Shown: positions 18,106-50,500, numbered from the whole stretch's first letter. The stretch: DNA of 63,748 nt, filler included, from Reclinomonas americana ATCC 50394 (GCA_048213135.1; 6 parts of 2 records of this genome joined end to end with filler, not necessarily neighbours in it); one strand, 5' to 3'. Numbers and translations are program-made. The notes: generated by a model from the letters alone, not told the origin.

Positions 18106-21100
18106 CATTGTTGCTCGACGGCACGACGCGCACAGTCACAGAAGACGCGGTGAAGCTGACAACCTCGGTCGACGGAGCCGACGGCAGCTCATCCGGAGCT
18201 ACATCACACAATTAGCAACACAAAACGCGTGTGCAACTGACCACTGCGTGGCAAGACGAAACTGATGGTCGCCGACTCGCTGAAATCCGAGTCGCCTCCA
18301 ACGCTGGCCACCGACGACTGCACGTACAGCGGCTCACCCGGAGTGAGACCGGTGATGTTGAAGATGGACGTGGGGATGGGTCCTTGGCCGGACAGGAATG
18401 GGCCATCGGGCAGATTCGCGCCGTAGCGGATGCGGTAGCTGGTGATCGGAGCCGAGTCGACCGGCACCGGATCCACGACAAACACGCGCACCGAGGTGAC
18501 GCTGGTCTGCACCAGGACTGGCTTGGGCGGGCGGTTCGGTCGCGGTGATTCTGTAGATAATCAATAGTGAGCACACAGATCCACAGGCCAGTCCCTTTGT
18601 CCTTCCTCCCACTCACCAATCTTGACAGTGCGCACATCACTGTACGGCGACTTGCCAAACGCGTTGGCCACGGCGGCACGGAAGAACACGTCCACATTCT
18701 TGTTGACGGGCAGACCAGTGAAGGTGCCGGTCGGCAGAGGACCGTAGAACGAGGTTGCGGCCGGCGGGAACGTGTTGTCCTCGCTGTACTCGACAAAGTA
18801 GCCGGTGATGGCGGTACCAAAGTTCTCTCCATCGATGACGGTGGCGTTCACGCTGCTGGTGAGCTGGTCGCCCAACACCGCCAGCGTAGGAGCACCAGGT
18901 ACTTGATCAGGGCCTGGTTTAAAGAGAGAGAAAGGTACACATTGTCAGACACACATTGAAAATACAAGGGAGCTCGACAGCTGTCACGCAACGAATCACA
19001 TGAGCCGGGCCAAACTGTCCGTAGCCAGCCACGTTGGCGGCCGCCGCGCGGACGTACACATCGACACCAGGCACCAAGTTGTACAACTGGAAGTGCGGGT
19101 CAGCACTGACATACTCGGCTGTACCAACATCAAACGCCGGAGTCGGCGCCGCCTGGATCTTGTACGTCGTGATGGCAGCACCGGCATTCGTCGGCTGCTG
19201 CACATCAGCGGTGATCGAGGTGGCGTTGAAGATGGCCAGCGTGACGTCAGGGGCGCCTGGAGTTGGTCCGAGATCCACTGCGAGTTGCAAAGGAGGTGAG
19301 GGTGATGCAAGGAGCCACAATGACGAAAAAGCACTCGTTATCTCTCTCCCTCCTAAAACACACAATCTCAACCATTCTTATTCATCCGACTCTCAGATCA
19401 CTATTGTGTCTGCTCTCTGCTTGCCCCACCTCTTCACTCATGTCCATTCTTTCTCGTTCTCCTTCTGCCCCTCGCTTCTCTCTTTATCACGCCCGTCGCT
19501 CTTTATCTCTCCTGTGCCTCCCATCTCTCTCACTCTCTCCCTCTCCAACTATGTCTCTCTTTCTCTTCTTACTCCATCAACGTGTTTCTTCAGTTCTGTT
19601 CTGCCTGCTACTCGCTCTCCATACCCCTCTCCATCTCCTTCCCTTTTTCCCCACGCCTCCTTCATCATCTTCTTTCTCCTTCTCCCTGTCCCCCTCCCCT
19701 TCCCTTCCCCCTTTCCACTCACCAATCATCGTCGACGACGTCGGTCCATACGGCGACTTGCCGGCCTTGTTGGCCACCGCCGCACGGAAGTACAGGAGCT
19801 GATTGACAGGCAGATTGTCGACGAGGAAAACCTCGCTCTCTTGCGGCGGCACATCGGTCACCGCACCGGCAAACGTCTCGCTCGTCGACCACTGCAAGTA
19901 GCGCTGGATGATGCTCGAGCCGGTGTTGACGGCGGTGCCGACTGTGGCACGGACCGCACGCGGCAGCACCACCTCCAGCGACACTGGCGGGCCCTCCGGC
20001 ACAGCGTCTGGAGCTGAGAATCGTGGTGCGTCAGCAGGCGAAGTAGAGCAAAGACTGTGAGTGACGCGGTGACGCAACTGATGACGGACACCATGCCGAA
20101 CGCGCTGTAGCCGGCGTCGTTGCGAGCGGCGGCCTTGACAAACACTTGCAGTCCGGGCGTCAGGCCGGCAATGACAAAGAAGCGCGACTCCTGGTCTTGC
20201 TGCTGGAAGGTGGCAAACGAGTCCGAAGTCGAGTACTGCACACGATAGCCGTTGACTGGCGTGCCGACCGTCACTGGAATGCGCACCGCCGCCGAAATGG
20301 TGGTGGCATTCAGCACACTCAGATCGACGTCGGGTGCGAACGGCACCGGTCCCACCACGTCGAGGCACGAGTCAGCGCTCCAGTCCGAGTAGCCGACGGC
20401 ATTTTGCGTGCGAGCCGACACACAGAAGCGTGCAGCCTGCGACACGGTGAACGAGAAATCGGTTCGCTGCTGCGCACCCTCGATCACATAGTCGGTGGCG
20501 GTCGCGGCGCGCCAGCGAATCTGGTTGAAACCGGTGAGAGGATCAGTGCCAATGTCGCTGTTCGGCACCACCAGTGCCTGCACGGTGAGCGGCGGCTGCT
20601 CGCTAAGCTGCACAGTGGGTGGCGCAGGGACGCGGCGCGGCGGAACCGGCACTGGCGACAAGACAGGGGAAAAAGTGAGAACAAGGACAAGAAGGGGTGG
20701 CTTCGAAGATTGATACGCACCCAGCACACACTGAACAGGGCCGTACTCCGAGAATCCACCAAAGATGCCTTCGACGGCGCCCTGGAAGCAGTATGTCTCG
20801 CTGATGATCAAGTTGCCAATGTCAAAGGTGTTGTTGTCTTGCGTGGTCACCACCGGATCGACAAACGTGTCGTTGATGCCGTAGCGCACGCGGTAGAAGC
20901 CACTCAGCTCCACATACGGAGGACCTGCACGGTGGGAAACACAGAATCGTGAATCGCCGTCCATCACACACACTGCTCCTTGTACATAATAGAATCTCGA
21001 GGCGCACCGTTGGGCAGCGGCGGGTCCAACACCTGCAGGCGCACACGAGTCGAGTCGGTGTCCAAGATGAGAACGTCGGGTGCGTCAGGCGGTCCCAGAC

Positions 21101-47500: not shown

Positions 47501-50500
47501 CGACAAGGCCGAGAAGCCAGCCAGATTGGCAGTCGACGCGGCGAAAAAGTACTCTTGCACCGGCGACAGGCCCGACACAATAATGGGATTGTCGGAGGTC
47601 TCAATCGGAGTGCCTTCGAGAGCCACCGTGGCACCCACGCGCAGACGGTACTGGCCACTGACAGCGGAACCGGTGTTGGTGGAGGGCGGGCCAACGGCCA
47701 CCGAGACGGTGGTGGAGTTGACAATGGTGATGGTGATGCTCGGCGCACCCGGCACCGCATCGGGGGTGGCAGTGATTGCGTCGCTCAAAGGCGAGGGGCC
47801 AAAGGCGTTCTTCACTTGTCCTTGAATGTACACGGGCTGCGACAACGAATGAGGGGCATGGTAAAAAAAAAAAAAAAGACGGGGACACATGGGAAAAGGA
47901 CGCACAACGCCCGGAGTGAAGCCCGTCAGTGTGAAGGAGTTGTCGGGCTGGAACGCCACCACCGTGACATTGGCAAAGGCAGCATCGAGACTGTAGCGCA
48001 AGCTGTAGGCCGCGATCGGTGTGCCTGTGTTGGTCGTGGGCGACACAACCACCGACAGCGAGGTCGCGGAGGGGACGGTAGCGGCGACCGTCGGCTGGCC
48101 AGGTGCGGCGTCGGGGACTGCGGCGCGGGAGAGGGAGGGCGAGGGAAAGGGGAGAGGGGGGAAGTGGTATAAAGGGGAAAGAAGGGAGTGTGTGAGGTGT
48201 AGTACGGGAGAGGGACAGGGTGAACAAAAGGCTGAGGGTAATGAGAGAAGGGAGAAGATTACGAGAAGGGAGAGGATGAGGGTAAGGGAGGTAAGGGTAG
48301 AAGAAAAAGGCGATGAAAAAGGAGAAGGCAAGGCGAAGGTTTGAGAGAGAGAGAGAGAGAGAGGCAGACAGAAAGACGGGTAGAAGAAAAACATAGAGAG
48401 ATAGGAAAGAAGGAAGGAAGAGAAAGATCACACGGCACTCACCCTCGTCCACCGAGTCGCCGAACGGTGAGACACCAAACGTGGTGGTGTATCGGCCTTG
48501 CACGTAGACGCGCTGCGAAGGAGGGAAGATGAGGGAACGAAACAACAGGCAACGCAAGACTACCGCACTCACCACGCCCGGAGTCAATCCAGAGATCTCA
48601 ATAGTGGACGTCGGCACCGAACCAATCTGCACCGTGTTGTTCGAGGGGAACAGCGGGTCGGTGCTGTAACGCACAAAGTACCCAGTGGCGGCATCGCCGC
48701 ACACGTTGTTGGGGACGATGGCGGCATCGAGCGACGTGGCGCTGTCAATGCTCAGCGACACCGTCGGTCCGGTCGGCGGCGCATCTTGCACCACTGTAGC
48801 ACACAACAATCAGTCGGTCGTCCACACGTTGCCTAGCAAGAACAGCTACGTCACCAATCTGCAGCGGCGCATTGTACGGTCCAAAGCCCGCCTGGTTCTC
48901 CACCGAGACAGCCACCTGGTAGAGGGCGTAGCGCGCGGCTGGCAACACAAACTCGAATGTCGACAGCTCGCGAGTCTCGCTAGGGCCCGCCGGCGTCACC
49001 GAGTACCAGAGCACCTTGACGCGGCCGGTGAGCGCGCTGCCATTGTTCGGCACCGGCTGCAACACCTTGACGACAATGTCGGTGCACGAGGTCACACTCA
49101 GATCGAGCAGTGGTGCACCCGGCACCTCATCGGGTACTGAGGCACAAAGTAAGCAAGTGAACAGTGCCAGGATTCAACATGGATTTTTGACAAACCAACA
49201 GAATCAATGGCGCCGTACGGCGACAGACCAAACGCGTTGGCAACAGAAGCGCGCACATAGACACGCACGCCCGGCGTGCGGCCCGTGATGACAAAATCGC
49301 GGCTCGTGTCGGTCAGCGTGGTGACGTCGGAGGACAAGTCGGCCACCAGGCTCCACTGGACCGAGTACTGTGCCGTTAGCGGCGACGTGCCGGCAAAGGC
49401 CGGGTCGTTGACACGCACGCGGAAGCTCGATCCAGCAATGTTCAAAAAGGTGACGGTGGGTGGGTCGGGGAGGAGCTCCGCACCTTTGAGGGGTCAAGGG
49501 AGAGGGAGAAGGGATGTGAGAAAGGAGAAGGAATGTGACAAAGAGAGGAAATGTGAGAAAGGAGAAGAGATAAGAGAAAGGAGAAGAGATGTGAGAAAGG
49601 AGAAGGAATGTGACAAAGGAGAAGAAATAAGAGAAAGGAGAAGAGATGAGAGAAAGGAGAAGGGATGTGAGAAAGGAGAAGGGATGTGAGAAAGGAGAAG
49701 GGATGCGAGAAGGAGACATCATCAATGCCCACATGCGTAAGAAAAGGCGAAAAATGACGTGAGAGAGGAAGACAGAGGGACACGAAAGCACATATAAGGA
49801 GTGCTACTTCCCCCGACCACGCAACTCGTAAAGACAGCGCTATTCGGCGACGAGCCGACCTTGTTGACGAGGGTGGCACGCACAAAAATGGTGGCCGGTC
49901 CCGACTGCGAAACTGTAATGGTAAACACGCCGCTGCTGGCTTGCGTCAGCGTGGTAATGGAAGCCGGCTGCGAATCAAAGACGTTGGCGGTGGCCCACTG
50001 CACGCGGTACTGTGTGAGCGGAGTGCCTCCAATGGCGGGCTTGCCGCCGACCACATCGGGCGATAGGGTGACGGTGAACACGTTGAGGGTGGCGGGGTCG
50101 TTGAAAATGGTGACATTCGGCGCGTGCGGCACCACCAGCACCTCCAGCTGCGACACCTTGCCAAACGGACTCAGGCCAGCCATGGTGCGCACGCGGCCCT
50201 GCACGTAAATCACCGTGCCGAGCGCCACATTGTCAATCACAAAGCTCGACGTCAGCTGCAGCGGCAGATTGGTGGTGGCGGCCGGCGCAAACTGCGGGTC
50301 CGTGCTCCAGCGCACGCCGTACGACTCCACCGCACCAATGCCCAACGGCGGGACGACCAGCACACGGACGCGACCGAGATCGACATCGGCACCCTCCTCG
50401 GCCGTCAGCGTCACCGTGGTGTCGGAACCCGGCAACGGCGCGTTCTGCGTGAGCAGAATGCGTGACGGGCAGAAGGTGCTGGCGGCCACCGCACGACCGC

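Follow-up and report, generated by a model that had tools for sequence, protein, structure and literature searches.

The window analysed here, 63,748 nucleotides of Reclinomonas americana ATCC 50394 with filler included, carries on its minus strand (50381-18101) a series of 73 FN3 domains, 72 of them complete and the last broken off by an assembly gap (Table 1). The domains were called with a profile that was seeded by Pfam-positive sequences and iterated within the window. Their number is a lower bound because the contig gaps could hide whole units, and it agrees with the about 72 complete domains counted in an earlier sequence-only reading, to which the profile adds one fragment. The array alone amounts to ~7,000 residues without interruption, and no stop codon falls within any of the 73 domains. 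One further, isolated FN3 domain lies at 56296-56063 on the same strand (E = 8e-14 with our own profile), and the window-trained profile found no match on the plus strand of the window. The array comprises at least 73 domains in one very large, intron-rich gene.

Table 1. Features of the FN3 gene and of the contigs that carry it
Feature	Coordinates	Strand	Basis or remark
Likely 5' portion of the FN3 gene	50411..57646	-	Probably one transcript with the array, from strand and spacing
Beta-rich exons	57128-57646	-	ORF translations
EGF-like six-Cys motif	near 56381-56490	-	Seen in ORF translation
Unknown domains	54554-54913, 52952-53362, 51651-52124	-	ORF translations; no family recognised
Unit 1, domains 1-14 (A-N)	43378..50410	-	Own FN3 profile; class by lag, nearest neighbour and tree
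A01	50381-50154	-	First domain of unit 1
J10, first exon	~46707-46610	-	Located by eye
N gap in M13-N14 interval	44017-44243
N14	43632-43378	-	Last domain of unit 1
Contig joiner	43201..43300	.	Between N14 and A15
Unit 2, domains 15-28	36323..42958 (A15 42958 to N28 36323)	-	Profile; lag, nearest neighbour and tree
E19, second exon	within 40939-40672	-	Located by eye
Unit 3, domains 29-42	30691..36223	-	Profile; lag, nearest neighbour and tree
Unit 4, domains 43-56	25153..30570	-	Profile and class assignment; spans linker 29094-29193
Contig joiner	29094..29193	.	Inside D46-E47 intron interval
Unit 5, domains 57-72 (A-M, L', M', N)	18276..25043	-	16 domains
L'	19254-19006	-	Extra unit-5 domain (domain 70)
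M'	18893-18633	-	Extra unit-5 domain (domain 71)
Unit 6 start, 26-27 N-terminal residues of a class-A domain	18101..18178	-	Runs into (GA)n tract, then linker gap
Contig joiner (44 N, 12-base six-frame stop, 44 N)	17883..17982	.	Truncates the gene on its 3' side

Domain identity and upstream exons

Several lines of evidence bear on the identity of these domains. The Pfam fn3 model (PF00041) reached its 25-bit cut-off on eight ORFs, five of the 150 first scanned and three of 18 further ones (42.9, 39.3, 29.2, 28.6, 27.8, 27.6, 25.6 and 25.4 bits), and ten more ORFs are listed with scores below it. A class-J ORF also scored 23.3 bits with Interfer-bind, for which the cut-off is 21. For the many domains missed by Pfam, including all those of class C, membership depends only on the window-trained profile. 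One such class-C domain (49209-49463) was folded: with an alignment of 51 window domains, its AF2 model had a pLDDT of 89.8, and Foldseek gave 91 PDB matches at E<=0.001, of which all those listed are FN3 (TMq 0.68-0.82). Support from the fold comes from this one domain only. Taken with the gathering scores, the predicted seven-stranded beta-sandwich, similar to that of solved FN3 domains, indicates membership in the FN3 family. No Ig-family model scored at or above its cut-off in the 168 ORFs, in which Big_1 and Ig_J_second gave weak signals far below theirs, and Pfam scans of ORFs found no kinase domain within the array.

The upstream exons lie on the same strand as the array and have the same kind of short introns. 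Within the ORF at 56381-57028, residues 180-207 approach the EGF models without reaching them (EGF_2, 21.7 bits vs a cut-off of 22.1; EGF_Teneurin, 22.2 vs 24.3). The sequence-only reading had proposed lectin-like domains at the tip of the protein. This proposal found no support, as the upstream exons match no lectin, PA14, CBM or other Pfam family at E up to 5-10 when tested singly, a procedure that may miss a domain split by an intron. Searches of the same exons against the PDB with phmmer gave chance-level matches only (E 0.38-0.99), a homologue search returned none, and an AF2 model of one such exon from its single sequence was unusable (pLDDT 51.6). No signal-peptide exon was found in 57630-58558, nor was an anchor found, and on the 3' side the gene breaks off at the 17883-17982 gap.

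The composition of the array offers further clues to its compartment. Lysine (1.0%) and glutamate (2.4%) are scarce, while serine plus threonine account for 22% and valine for 11% of residues. GC-rich codon usage (GC3 = 0.76) could account for part of the lysine scarcity, and N-x-S/T sequons are not enriched (51 observed vs 59 expected). A single cysteine is present at column 11 of class D and at column 25 of class E in all five copies of each, and on the class-C model these columns are predicted to map to the AB turn (column 11) and the BC loop (column 25). In the FN3 topology, these two elements are opposed where adjoining domains meet. It is possible that the AB-turn cysteine of D forms an inter-domain disulfide with the BC-loop cysteine of E. 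The cysteine of classes I, J and K occupies the column of the tyrosine-corner tyrosine in other classes, and is probably buried and uninformative on disulfides.

A 14-domain block repeated with its introns

The order of the domains is strongly periodic. Mean identity is 0.384, 0.372, 0.371 and 0.374 at lags of 14, 28, 42 and 56 domains, as against 0.248-0.292 over all remaining lags between 1 and 63. Domains spaced by a multiple of 14 are thus 37-38% identical and those at any other spacing 25-29%, and class-mates are indeed closer than neighbours, as the sequence-only reading had judged. The excess of 0.113 compares with a standard deviation of 0.0044 under shuffling of domain order (z = 25.8), and none of 2000 shuffles reached it. 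No second period stands out among lags 1-63, and lag 7 is flat at 0.251. The nearest neighbour lies at a multiple of 14 for 59 of the 73 domains, where ~5 are expected by chance. The 14 misses consist of four class-mates shifted out of register by the two additional domains of unit 5, four cross-hits between A and F, one 26-residue fragment, and five other cross-class hits.

A tree of 72 domains, from which the fragment was left out, recovers 10 of the 14 classes as monophyletic (support 0.87-0.995). Class B forms a clade of four of its five members, and A, F and M are mixed. The expectation of 14 clades of about five members was thus borne out for most classes. Classes A and F cannot be separated by sequence, since identity between them (0.36) equals that within A (0.36) and nearly that within F (0.37). 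Judged by the class consensus, several classes retain distinctive loop motifs in four or five of their five copies. Neither net charge (ANOVA p = 0.06) nor sequon number (p = 0.39) differs significantly by class.

The array is therefore built of a 14-domain block in fixed order, A-N, present five times and followed by the start of a sixth. Class J recurs at 46543, 38500, 32610, 26818 and 20943, class D at 49116, 41881, 35115, 29493 and 23972, and class K comes after J every time. These positions had been read correctly from the sequence, with the sixth unit now seen to start at 18178. The claim of 14 classes recurring in fixed order stands as to period, with the qualifications that A and F are inseparable and that 16 domains make up unit 5. 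Domains 70, 71 and 72 have L54, M55 and N14 as their respective nearest neighbours (lags -16, -16 and -58), L70 groups within the L clade, and the M69/L70 junction has a modelled intron of 445 nt (19278-19722). Below 17883, our profile found neither the rest of the class-A domain of unit 6 nor any more FN3.

The units are joined by short introns. Four N-to-A junctions are internal to contigs. At these, domain hits are 97-120 nt apart, and each junction has a donor and a CAG or TAG acceptor with no space for a gene boundary. Because N28 and A29 are only 99 nt apart, units 2 and 3 would share one transcript, and the short introns that connect the units argue for one gene rather than five. Single contigs hold 32 (A15-D46) and 27 (E47-A73) consecutive domains, and across both linkers the strand is the same and class order carries on (N14|A15 and D46|E47). 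Mis-joined contigs at the 29138 and 43245 linkers are thus very improbable, and the single giant gene originally proposed is supported.

This gene has ~80 short GT-AG introns, a eukaryotic structure, and its intron map recurs every 14 domains. Introns interrupt the domains of class A in four of five copies and those of E, F and J in all five. The A-to-B and F-to-G boundaries lack an intron in all five units (spacing of 33-36 nt in nine of the 10 junctions), and the remaining boundaries carry short introns with K67-L68 as the sole exception. Among 58 confidently modelled introns, 43 of the 47 between domains are in phase 1, where boundaries come from a weight matrix trained on this same gene and some modelled introns, such as those of 33-49 nt, are clearly wrong. 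Splice sites are kept at the same positions across all units, and the repeated block thus takes in its roughly 16 introns.

The copies have diverged considerably. The 106 pairs compared within classes have a median dN of 0.64 and a median dS of 1.32, and their third-position identity is 0.38-0.45 as against 0.365 for different-class pairs. Identity from unit to unit is flat (0.36-0.41), with all pairs of units about equally diverged. Synonymous divergence near saturation (~1.3), coupled with a dN of ~0.64, suggests that the block duplications are old, as the sequence-only reading had supposed, and that the array is under constraint.

Relatives and known super-repeat proteins

No orthologue was found in any database searched. 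When 1.84 billion representatives were searched exhaustively with HMMER, using J66-K67-L68 as query, the best identity was 38% over a short stretch only, no relationship to titin, twitchin or obscurin was seen apart from the generic FN3 fold, and the top eight matches were generic multi-FN3 proteins (27-33% identical). None of the 152 proteins examined follows the A-N order for more than two consecutive classes. The best matches are metagenome multi-FN3 proteins (P0002-P0009; E 1e-48 to 1e-32, identity 27-33%), each with 9-16 matched FN3 stretches. They are lysine-poor like the array, and one is called 'titin' by its source. However, most of their domains are assigned to F, L, M and D, within a small set of generic classes, and on sequence comparison they are not orthologues and lack such a super-repeat.

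The A-band super-repeats of titin (a D-zone unit of seven domains present six times and a C-zone unit of 11 present 11 times) are likewise ordered blocks in tandem within one giant protein. There too, positional equivalents are closer than neighbours and FN3 domains lie in a long rod. According to PMC10665226, the 11-domain C-zone unit of ~43 nm matches the 43-nm myosin repeat, and thick filaments become shorter when two super-repeats are deleted. The 14-domain unit described here has a comparable length of ~55 nm. In contrast, titin units mix Ig and FN3 domains, whereas this array is FN3 only, with a larger unit (14) and fewer copies (five or more). Titin is also cytoplasmic and bound to myosin and MyBP-C, and the array differs further in its lysine-poor composition.

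The 7-module super-repeat of nebulin, as presented in portions of Bjorklund et al. 2006 (PMC1553488), similarly arose by duplication of several domains at once, with an exon pattern that recurs per block. It involves another domain family and a smaller unit, and its exon borders lie inside domains, whereas those here are mostly between domains and in phase 1.

Tenascins, usherin and fibronectin are extracellular rods of tandem FN3 domains, often placed after EGF-like modules, and have one domain per exon with phase-1 introns. Their arrays are shorter (about 15-35 FN3), and we know of no 14-domain order in them. A bacterial giant repeat adhesin of the RTX or Bap-like kind is excluded by the ~80 GT-AG introns and by repeats that are 37% identical rather than nearly so.

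Origin and possible role of the array

We consider it reasonably probable that a single giant gene grew by old block duplication and encodes a secreted or surface rod. A genomic segment of ~5.5-7 kb with ~17 exons would have been duplicated in tandem several times. These events are placed long ago because synonymous divergence approaches saturation and is accompanied by much the same divergence between any two units. Most domains occupy an exon of their own between phase-1 introns, which would make in-frame unequal crossing-over within introns easy, and parts of PMC1553488 describe the duplication of multi-domain blocks together with their exon pattern as a known route, for example in nebulin. 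Every copy would since have been held open under purifying selection. The balance tips modestly toward a product that is a semi-rigid rod of ~285 nm, secreted or attached to the surface; the sequence-only reading had reckoned with ~250 nm at ~3.5 nm per FN3, which is reasonable arithmetic. Its extracellular assignment was not confirmed by a signal-peptide exon or anchor, and what points that way is the sub-cut-off EGF-like motif, the composition and the cysteine pair. Such a rod would carry non-FN3 domains at the N-terminus and might serve as a spacer, a tether or a fibre. Its 14-fold order may mainly be a frozen record of rod lengthening, with class-specific features persisting through co-adaptation of each domain to fixed neighbours, and need not be read out by any periodic partner.

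Perhaps the order is instead read out, with the rod running alongside a structure of ~55-nm period or itself assembling into one, and with each class binding a position-specific partner in analogy with the C-zone of titin. The survival of order and class identity through near-saturating synonymous divergence fits this idea, as do five about equally diverged units of which none is decaying, and the conserved loop motifs would suit position-specific function. The 11-domain, ~43-nm unit of titin also supplies a precedent (PMC10665226, in part). However, common ancestry alone explains the similarity of class-mates, and block duplication by itself yields such ordered patterns and is common without a ruler function, at least as covered in sections of PMC1553488. 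Furthermore, classes do not differ significantly in net charge or sequon number, and a strict ruler would poorly tolerate the two extra domains that break the period in unit 5. We therefore regard a periodic template as unlikely.

It is quite improbable that the protein is instead an intracellular, titin-like cytoskeletal component and that the EGF-like exon upstream is part of a different gene. The failure to find a signal peptide or membrane anchor and a coiled-coil gene next on the same strand (at ~10-16 kb) would agree with this location, and giant FN3-rich super-repeat proteins are best known from muscle cytoplasm in what PMC10665226 and PMC3859903 relate in part. Against it stand the lack of Ig and kinase domains, the loop positions of the conserved D/E cysteines, and an EGF-like motif and isolated FN3 upstream on the same strand with similar short introns. 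Sarcomeric FN3 domains are charged and rich in lysine and glutamate, unlike those of the array. Very improbable is an assembly artefact, in which three contigs from different paralogues or haplotypes were joined arbitrarily. The window is indeed built of contigs with six-frame-stop spacers, all contig breaks fall in microsatellites, and such spacers serve to concatenate unordered contigs (bioRxiv 10.1101/2023.02.08.527609, in the part describing a spacer of different sequence). Yet the long runs of consecutive domains already lie inside single contigs, strand and class order are exact across both joins, which would be very unlikely if the order were arbitrary, and units share only scattered DNA matches of 39-73 nt at 75-90% identity, too little for assembly collapse or confusion. 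A dead or decaying array with no present function is extremely improbable. The lack of a homologue in every database searched is what such an array might show, but stops are absent from all 73 domains, every unit retains its splice sites at the same positions, and dN amounts to roughly half of dS, itself close to saturation.

The super-repeat is unusually large and old. It is distinctly doubtful that a non-animal eukaryote independently evolved a titin-like molecular ruler from an FN3-only rod with a 14-domain (~55-nm) period whose strict order has outlasted near-saturating divergence. If this were true, the rod would template or measure some extracellular or cortical structure of periodic build (banded fibres, the spacing of hairs or scales, or a stalk), and in each period one junction would be stiffened by the conserved cysteines of D and E.

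Recurring order of the FN3 domains

The minus strand of the window carries an array of 73 FN3 domains, numbered here 1 to 73 along the gene, which fall into 14 positional types (classes A to N) that recur in the same order. Units 1 to 5 denote the successive copies of this block (domains 1-14, 15-28, 29-42, 43-56 and 57-72), and a fragment, A73, begins unit 6. In a first Pfam scan, fn3 (PF00041) matched 10 of 150 minus-strand ORFs, five of which reached the 25-bit cut-off. A second scan, covering 18 of the 52 remaining ORFs, gave eight fn3 matches (three at or above the cut-off), and a class-J ORF scored above the cut-off of Interfer-bind, an FN3 family. 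Six Pfam-positive stretches served as the seed for our own FN3 profile, which converged at 85 included hits after four iterations on the window's minus-strand ORFs; merging intron-split pieces yielded the 73 domains. Because this profile was trained on the window, it shows the mutual kinship of the domains and not their identity. As a check independent of it, a Pfam-negative class-C domain was folded with 51 window domains as the alignment, giving a pLDDT of 89.8, and every PDB match listed for the model is an FN3 domain (TM 0.68-0.82), with NCAM, neogenin, integrin beta4 and the titin A-band among them. Our profile found zero FN3 domains on the plus strand of the whole window, and tRNA and Rfam scans of the window returned no matches.

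Several independent measures confirm the 14-domain order, and the statistical evidence is overwhelming. Mean pairwise identity over profile columns is 0.384, 0.372, 0.371 and 0.374 at lags of 14, 28, 42 and 56 domains, compared with 0.248-0.292 at all remaining lags from 1 to 63. The resulting period-14 excess of 0.113 (null sd 0.0044, z = 25.8) was approached in none of 2000 shuffles of the domain order. No other period from 2 to 29 is distinct save via multiples of 14, and there is no sub-period, since lag 7 is as flat as every other non-14 lag from 1 to 63. For 59 of the 73 domains the closest relative lies at a multiple of 14, where about five would be expected by chance. The 14 exceptions comprise four class-mates shifted by the two extra domains of unit 5 (domains 54, 70, 71 and 72), four cross-hits between classes A and F (15, 20, 43 and 57), five other cross-class matches (5, 13, 27, 29 and 69) and one 26-residue fragment at a gap. 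Self-BLASTP of ORF fragments likewise gives score peaks at offsets of 5.4-6.0, 11.1-12.0, 17.4-18.3 and 24.9-25.8 kb. In self-BLASTN the units share no more than five short matches (39-73 nt, 75-90% identity), all offset in keeping with the period; at the DNA level the repeat cannot be seen.

The sequence-only reading had proposed this repeated order, with off-diagonals at multiples of 14 and clustering by position in the block rather than by neighborhood, and all of this is borne out; its coordinates for classes J, D and K are all correct, as is its placing of the sixth unit's start. It had also expected 14 clades of class-mates, which holds in part. A maximum-likelihood tree of 72 domains recovers clades for 10 of the 14 classes (C, D, E, G, H, I, J, K, L and N; support 0.87-0.995), but only four of five class-B domains group together and classes A, F and M are intermixed. 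In the class-by-class matrix, A and F are 0.36 identical to each other, and identity within A and within F is 0.36 and 0.37. Judged by sequence, about 13 types can be distinguished across the 14 positions. No significant periodic pattern of charge or sequons by class was detected.

Positions of features in the window (nucleotides)
Feature	Position	Strand	Basis or remark
FN3 array, 73 domains	50381-18101	minus	own profile
Isolated FN3 domain	56296-56063	minus	own profile
Extra domains of unit 5, after M69	L' 19254-19006; M' 18893-18633	minus	own profile
Example domains	A 42958-42635; F 40671-40344; D 49116-48868; E 48767-48456	minus
Upstream exons	50.4-57.65 kb	minus	same kind of introns as array
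Beta-rich domain, two exons split by an intron of ~70 nt	57128-57646	minus	ORF translation
EGF-like six-Cys motif	upstream exons, 50.4-57.65 kb	minus	just under Pfam cut-offs
Three stretches without recognizable family	54554-54913; 52952-53362; 51651-52124	minus
Coiled-coil-rich protein exons	~10000-16000	minus	contig past 3' joiner
Protein kinase, two exons	60607-61558	plus	Pkinase E = 5e-19, 5e-12
Contig joiners, five identical, 100 bases each	17883-17982; 29094-29193; 43201-43300; 58559-58658; 60462-60561		44 N + 12-base six-frame stop + 44 N
Ordinary N gaps (among others)	44017-44243; 52335-52590
Tandem DNA repeats, intronic or intergenic	55011-55578; 58052-58558; 16443-17202; 3762-4172		71-84% identity; periods ~147, 126, 429/278 and 267 nt, respectively

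Evidence for a single gene, and the intron map

The 63.7-kb window is stitched from contigs, with GC content of about 0.57-0.60 across the region, and is a concatenation or scaffold rather than a continuous sequence. Microsatellites flank all five joiners (the spacers between contigs), so the assembly breaks lie at simple repeats. Six-frame-stop spacers, of a different sequence, are described in an excerpt of a preprint as serving to concatenate unordered contigs (bioRxiv 10.1101/2023.02.08.527609), and continuity across the joiners therefore needs argument rather than assumption. Within contigs, the four N-to-A junctions measure 99, 120, 109 and 97 nt, which corresponds to one short intron and leaves no room for a stop, terminator, promoter and start. 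One contig holds A15 to D46 (32 domains) and another E47 to A73 (27 domains). Across the joiners both strand and class order continue exactly, with N14 followed by A15 and D46 by E47, a continuity that is very improbable for arbitrarily concatenated contigs. Thus, the joins near 29138 and 43245 on which the proposal of one giant gene depended are very probably correct, with the qualification that whole units could sit inside the gaps. The protein kinase lies on the opposite strand to the array, on a separate contig.

Stop-to-stop ORFs on the minus strand shift frame every 100-400 bases, which is the pattern expected of an intron-rich eukaryotic gene. Junctions A-to-B and F-to-G are intron-less in five of five units each, with profile hits spaced 33-36 nt apart; the sole exception, A01-B02 at 102 nt, arises because the profile hit on B02 begins at column 18. 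Nearly all other boundaries span 92-125 nt or more and cross a frame change or stop, and the boundary introns each have a donor of type GTGCGT, GTTGCG or GTGAGT, a CTNAC-like branch site and a CAG acceptor. Intradomain introns also occur in all five copies of classes E, F and J and in four of five copies of class A, close to profile column 65 (A, E and F) or column 27 (J). Inspection by eye supplied the exons still missing from three domains, the second of E19 and of E61 and the first of J10. Only two positions deviate from this map: A01 lacks the intradomain intron, and K67-L68 has no intron. This pattern of presence and absence is robust because it is based on spacing and frame. A weight-matrix model, trained on the same gene and with some choices wrong, so that phases and exact borders are provisional, gave 58 confident introns (median 77.5 nt), of which 43 of 47 between domains are phase 1, and the 11 within domains are phase 0 (nine) or phase 1 (two). 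The donor sites are unusual (GTTGCG in 12, GTGCGT in 10 and GTGAGT in nine of the 58 modeled introns, 18-50 kb, minus strand), and the long introns often contain (TC)n, (AC)n and (GA)n microsatellites.

The phase-0 intron near column 65 and the intron-less junction that follows are common to classes A and F, and class E has its intradomain intron at the same position. These shared features indicate that the 14-domain unit carries an older internal duplication history, without a regular sub-period.

The gene probably extends beyond the array at both ends. The class-A domain of unit 6 breaks off after 26-27 residues, where a (GA)n tract leads into a joiner, and its remainder is absent from the next contig, which bears repeats and coiled-coil exons; the C-terminus is therefore missing. 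The coiled-coil exons, whose ORFs of at least 90 aa match no Pfam family, are probably a separate gene. Upstream, neither exon of the beta-rich domain singly has a Pfam match at E up to 10; its resemblance to PA14 was a visual impression that found no support in Pfam or PDB-sequence searches. The three stretches without a recognizable family have no Pfam, PDB-sequence or database relative, and the second and third, which open with a similar motif, may represent one domain in two copies. No signal-peptide exon is recognizable in 57630-58558, up to the next joiner. The lectin-like tips suggested by the sequence-only reading gained no support from Pfam, PDB sequence search, single-sequence folding or the ESM Atlas, where the best score for the upstream domains (0.87) was to unnamed clusters and is a lead only.

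Build and age of the protein

Each domain occupies about 96-97 residues, made up of 85 profile columns and a Pro-rich connector of 11-12 residues with a recurrent P-D-x-V-P motif, and the array alone amounts to about 7,000 uninterrupted residues. Scaling from titin, for which 43 nm per 11 domains is given in an excerpt of PMC10665226, predicts a rod of about 285 nm and a period of 55 nm. Its composition (Ser+Thr 22%, Val 11%, Ala 10%, Pro 8%, Lys 1.0%, Glu 2.4%), to which GC-rich codon usage (GC3 0.76) may contribute, and the upstream EGF-like motif lean toward a secreted or surface protein. There is no enrichment of sequons (51 versus 59 expected).

Among 29 domain cysteines, 23 occupy five class-specific columns. 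Those of classes I, J and K take the place of the tyrosine-corner Tyr of other classes and are probably buried, and for this reason periodic intermolecular cross-links through them were dropped from consideration. The class-D cysteine at column 11 (in the AB turn on the class-C model) and the class-E cysteine at column 25 (in the BC loop) are present in five of five copies each and have no intradomain partner. In tandem FN3 domains, the AB turn lies opposite the BC loop of the following domain. An inter-domain D-E disulfide once per unit is therefore plausible on the model, and such a bond would suit an oxidizing, extracellular setting.

The units are old. Over 106 same-class pairs from 51 single-exon domains (Nei-Gojobori; one pair undefined), median dN is 0.64 and median dS 1.32. 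Third positions are 0.38-0.45 identical in same-class pairs and 0.365 identical in 200 different-class pairs drawn at random; synonymous sites have become almost randomized. All 73 domains are nonetheless open. The ten pairs of units all have identities of 0.36-0.41, unit 4 being marginally the most diverged, and a consistent unit phylogeny was rejected because per-class topologies disagree and unit distances are star-like. These data fit block duplications in an old and rapid burst, or subsequent shuffling through unequal exchange, and thereafter a long period of independent divergence under purifying selection. The sequence-only proposal of old block duplications in one giant gene is thus well supported. 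The extra L' and M' domains of unit 5 are no nearer to L68 and M69 than to other units, and the M69-L70 interval (19741-19255) is unusually long, with a modeled intron of 445 nt. An old two-domain duplication and an old deletion that joined two units within an intron fit this pair equally well.

Relatives and possible function

An exhaustive HMMER search with the J66-K67-L68 exon against 1.84 billion representative proteins returned 291 proteins at E<=0.001 but no orthologue, only generic FN3 similarity. The best eight of the 291 (E<1e-30) are metagenomic multi-FN3 proteins of 1363-2732 residues, 27-33% identical, one of them labeled 'titin' by its source. When 14 class profiles were applied to the 152 retrieved proteins with domains, the longest run in A-N order was two consecutive classes, and classes C, I and E were almost never the best match. 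Word-indexed protein searches with the three-domain exon (proteins of 563-2000 aa only), with one upstream domain (X) and with a class-G alignment (51-167 aa) gave nothing usable, and none of 187 pattern matches to a two-domain exon in metagenome contigs was confirmed. Searches of the literature outside subscription journals, as far as its excerpts extend, for FN3 super-repeats or giant FN3 proteins of protists and other unicellular eukaryotes brought up titin-type and bacterial papers, with no FN3 super-repeat beyond the titin type.

Super-repeats in fixed order are the classic mark of molecular rulers such as titin and nebulin, and to our knowledge all of the well-studied examples are animal muscle proteins. 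The titin/nebulin type is the closest known kind, in that blocks are repeated in order, yet the array described here consists of FN3 domains only, has a larger, 14-domain unit, stands in a non-muscle and probably also non-animal context, and lacks detectable orthologues. If the array served as a ruler or template proper, with a repeat of about 55 nm, the finding would be important, but we consider this rather unlikely. We favor, with some confidence, a long rod, extracellular or at the cell surface, that grew by duplication of the 14-domain block. In such a rod, the block with its roughly 17 exons would have been copied through unequal exchange within phase-1 introns, and the domain order would have been kept since each domain had adapted to fixed neighbors. 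Duplication of multi-domain blocks is a known route (PMC1553488, in excerpt).

The array represents a clean, ordered super-repeat outside animal muscle, with a larger unit made entirely of FN3 domains and at least 73 domains in an unbroken run. Its intron map was duplicated together with the domains, and each copy is intact even though synonymous sites are nearly randomized. It offers a natural experiment on the growth of long arrays by unequal crossing-over in phase-1 introns, and it informs how adjacent domains stay distinct. Low identity between neighbors may help prevent misfolding. Giant genes of this kind can be missing from protein databases, and the protein may represent a new periodic extracellular structure.
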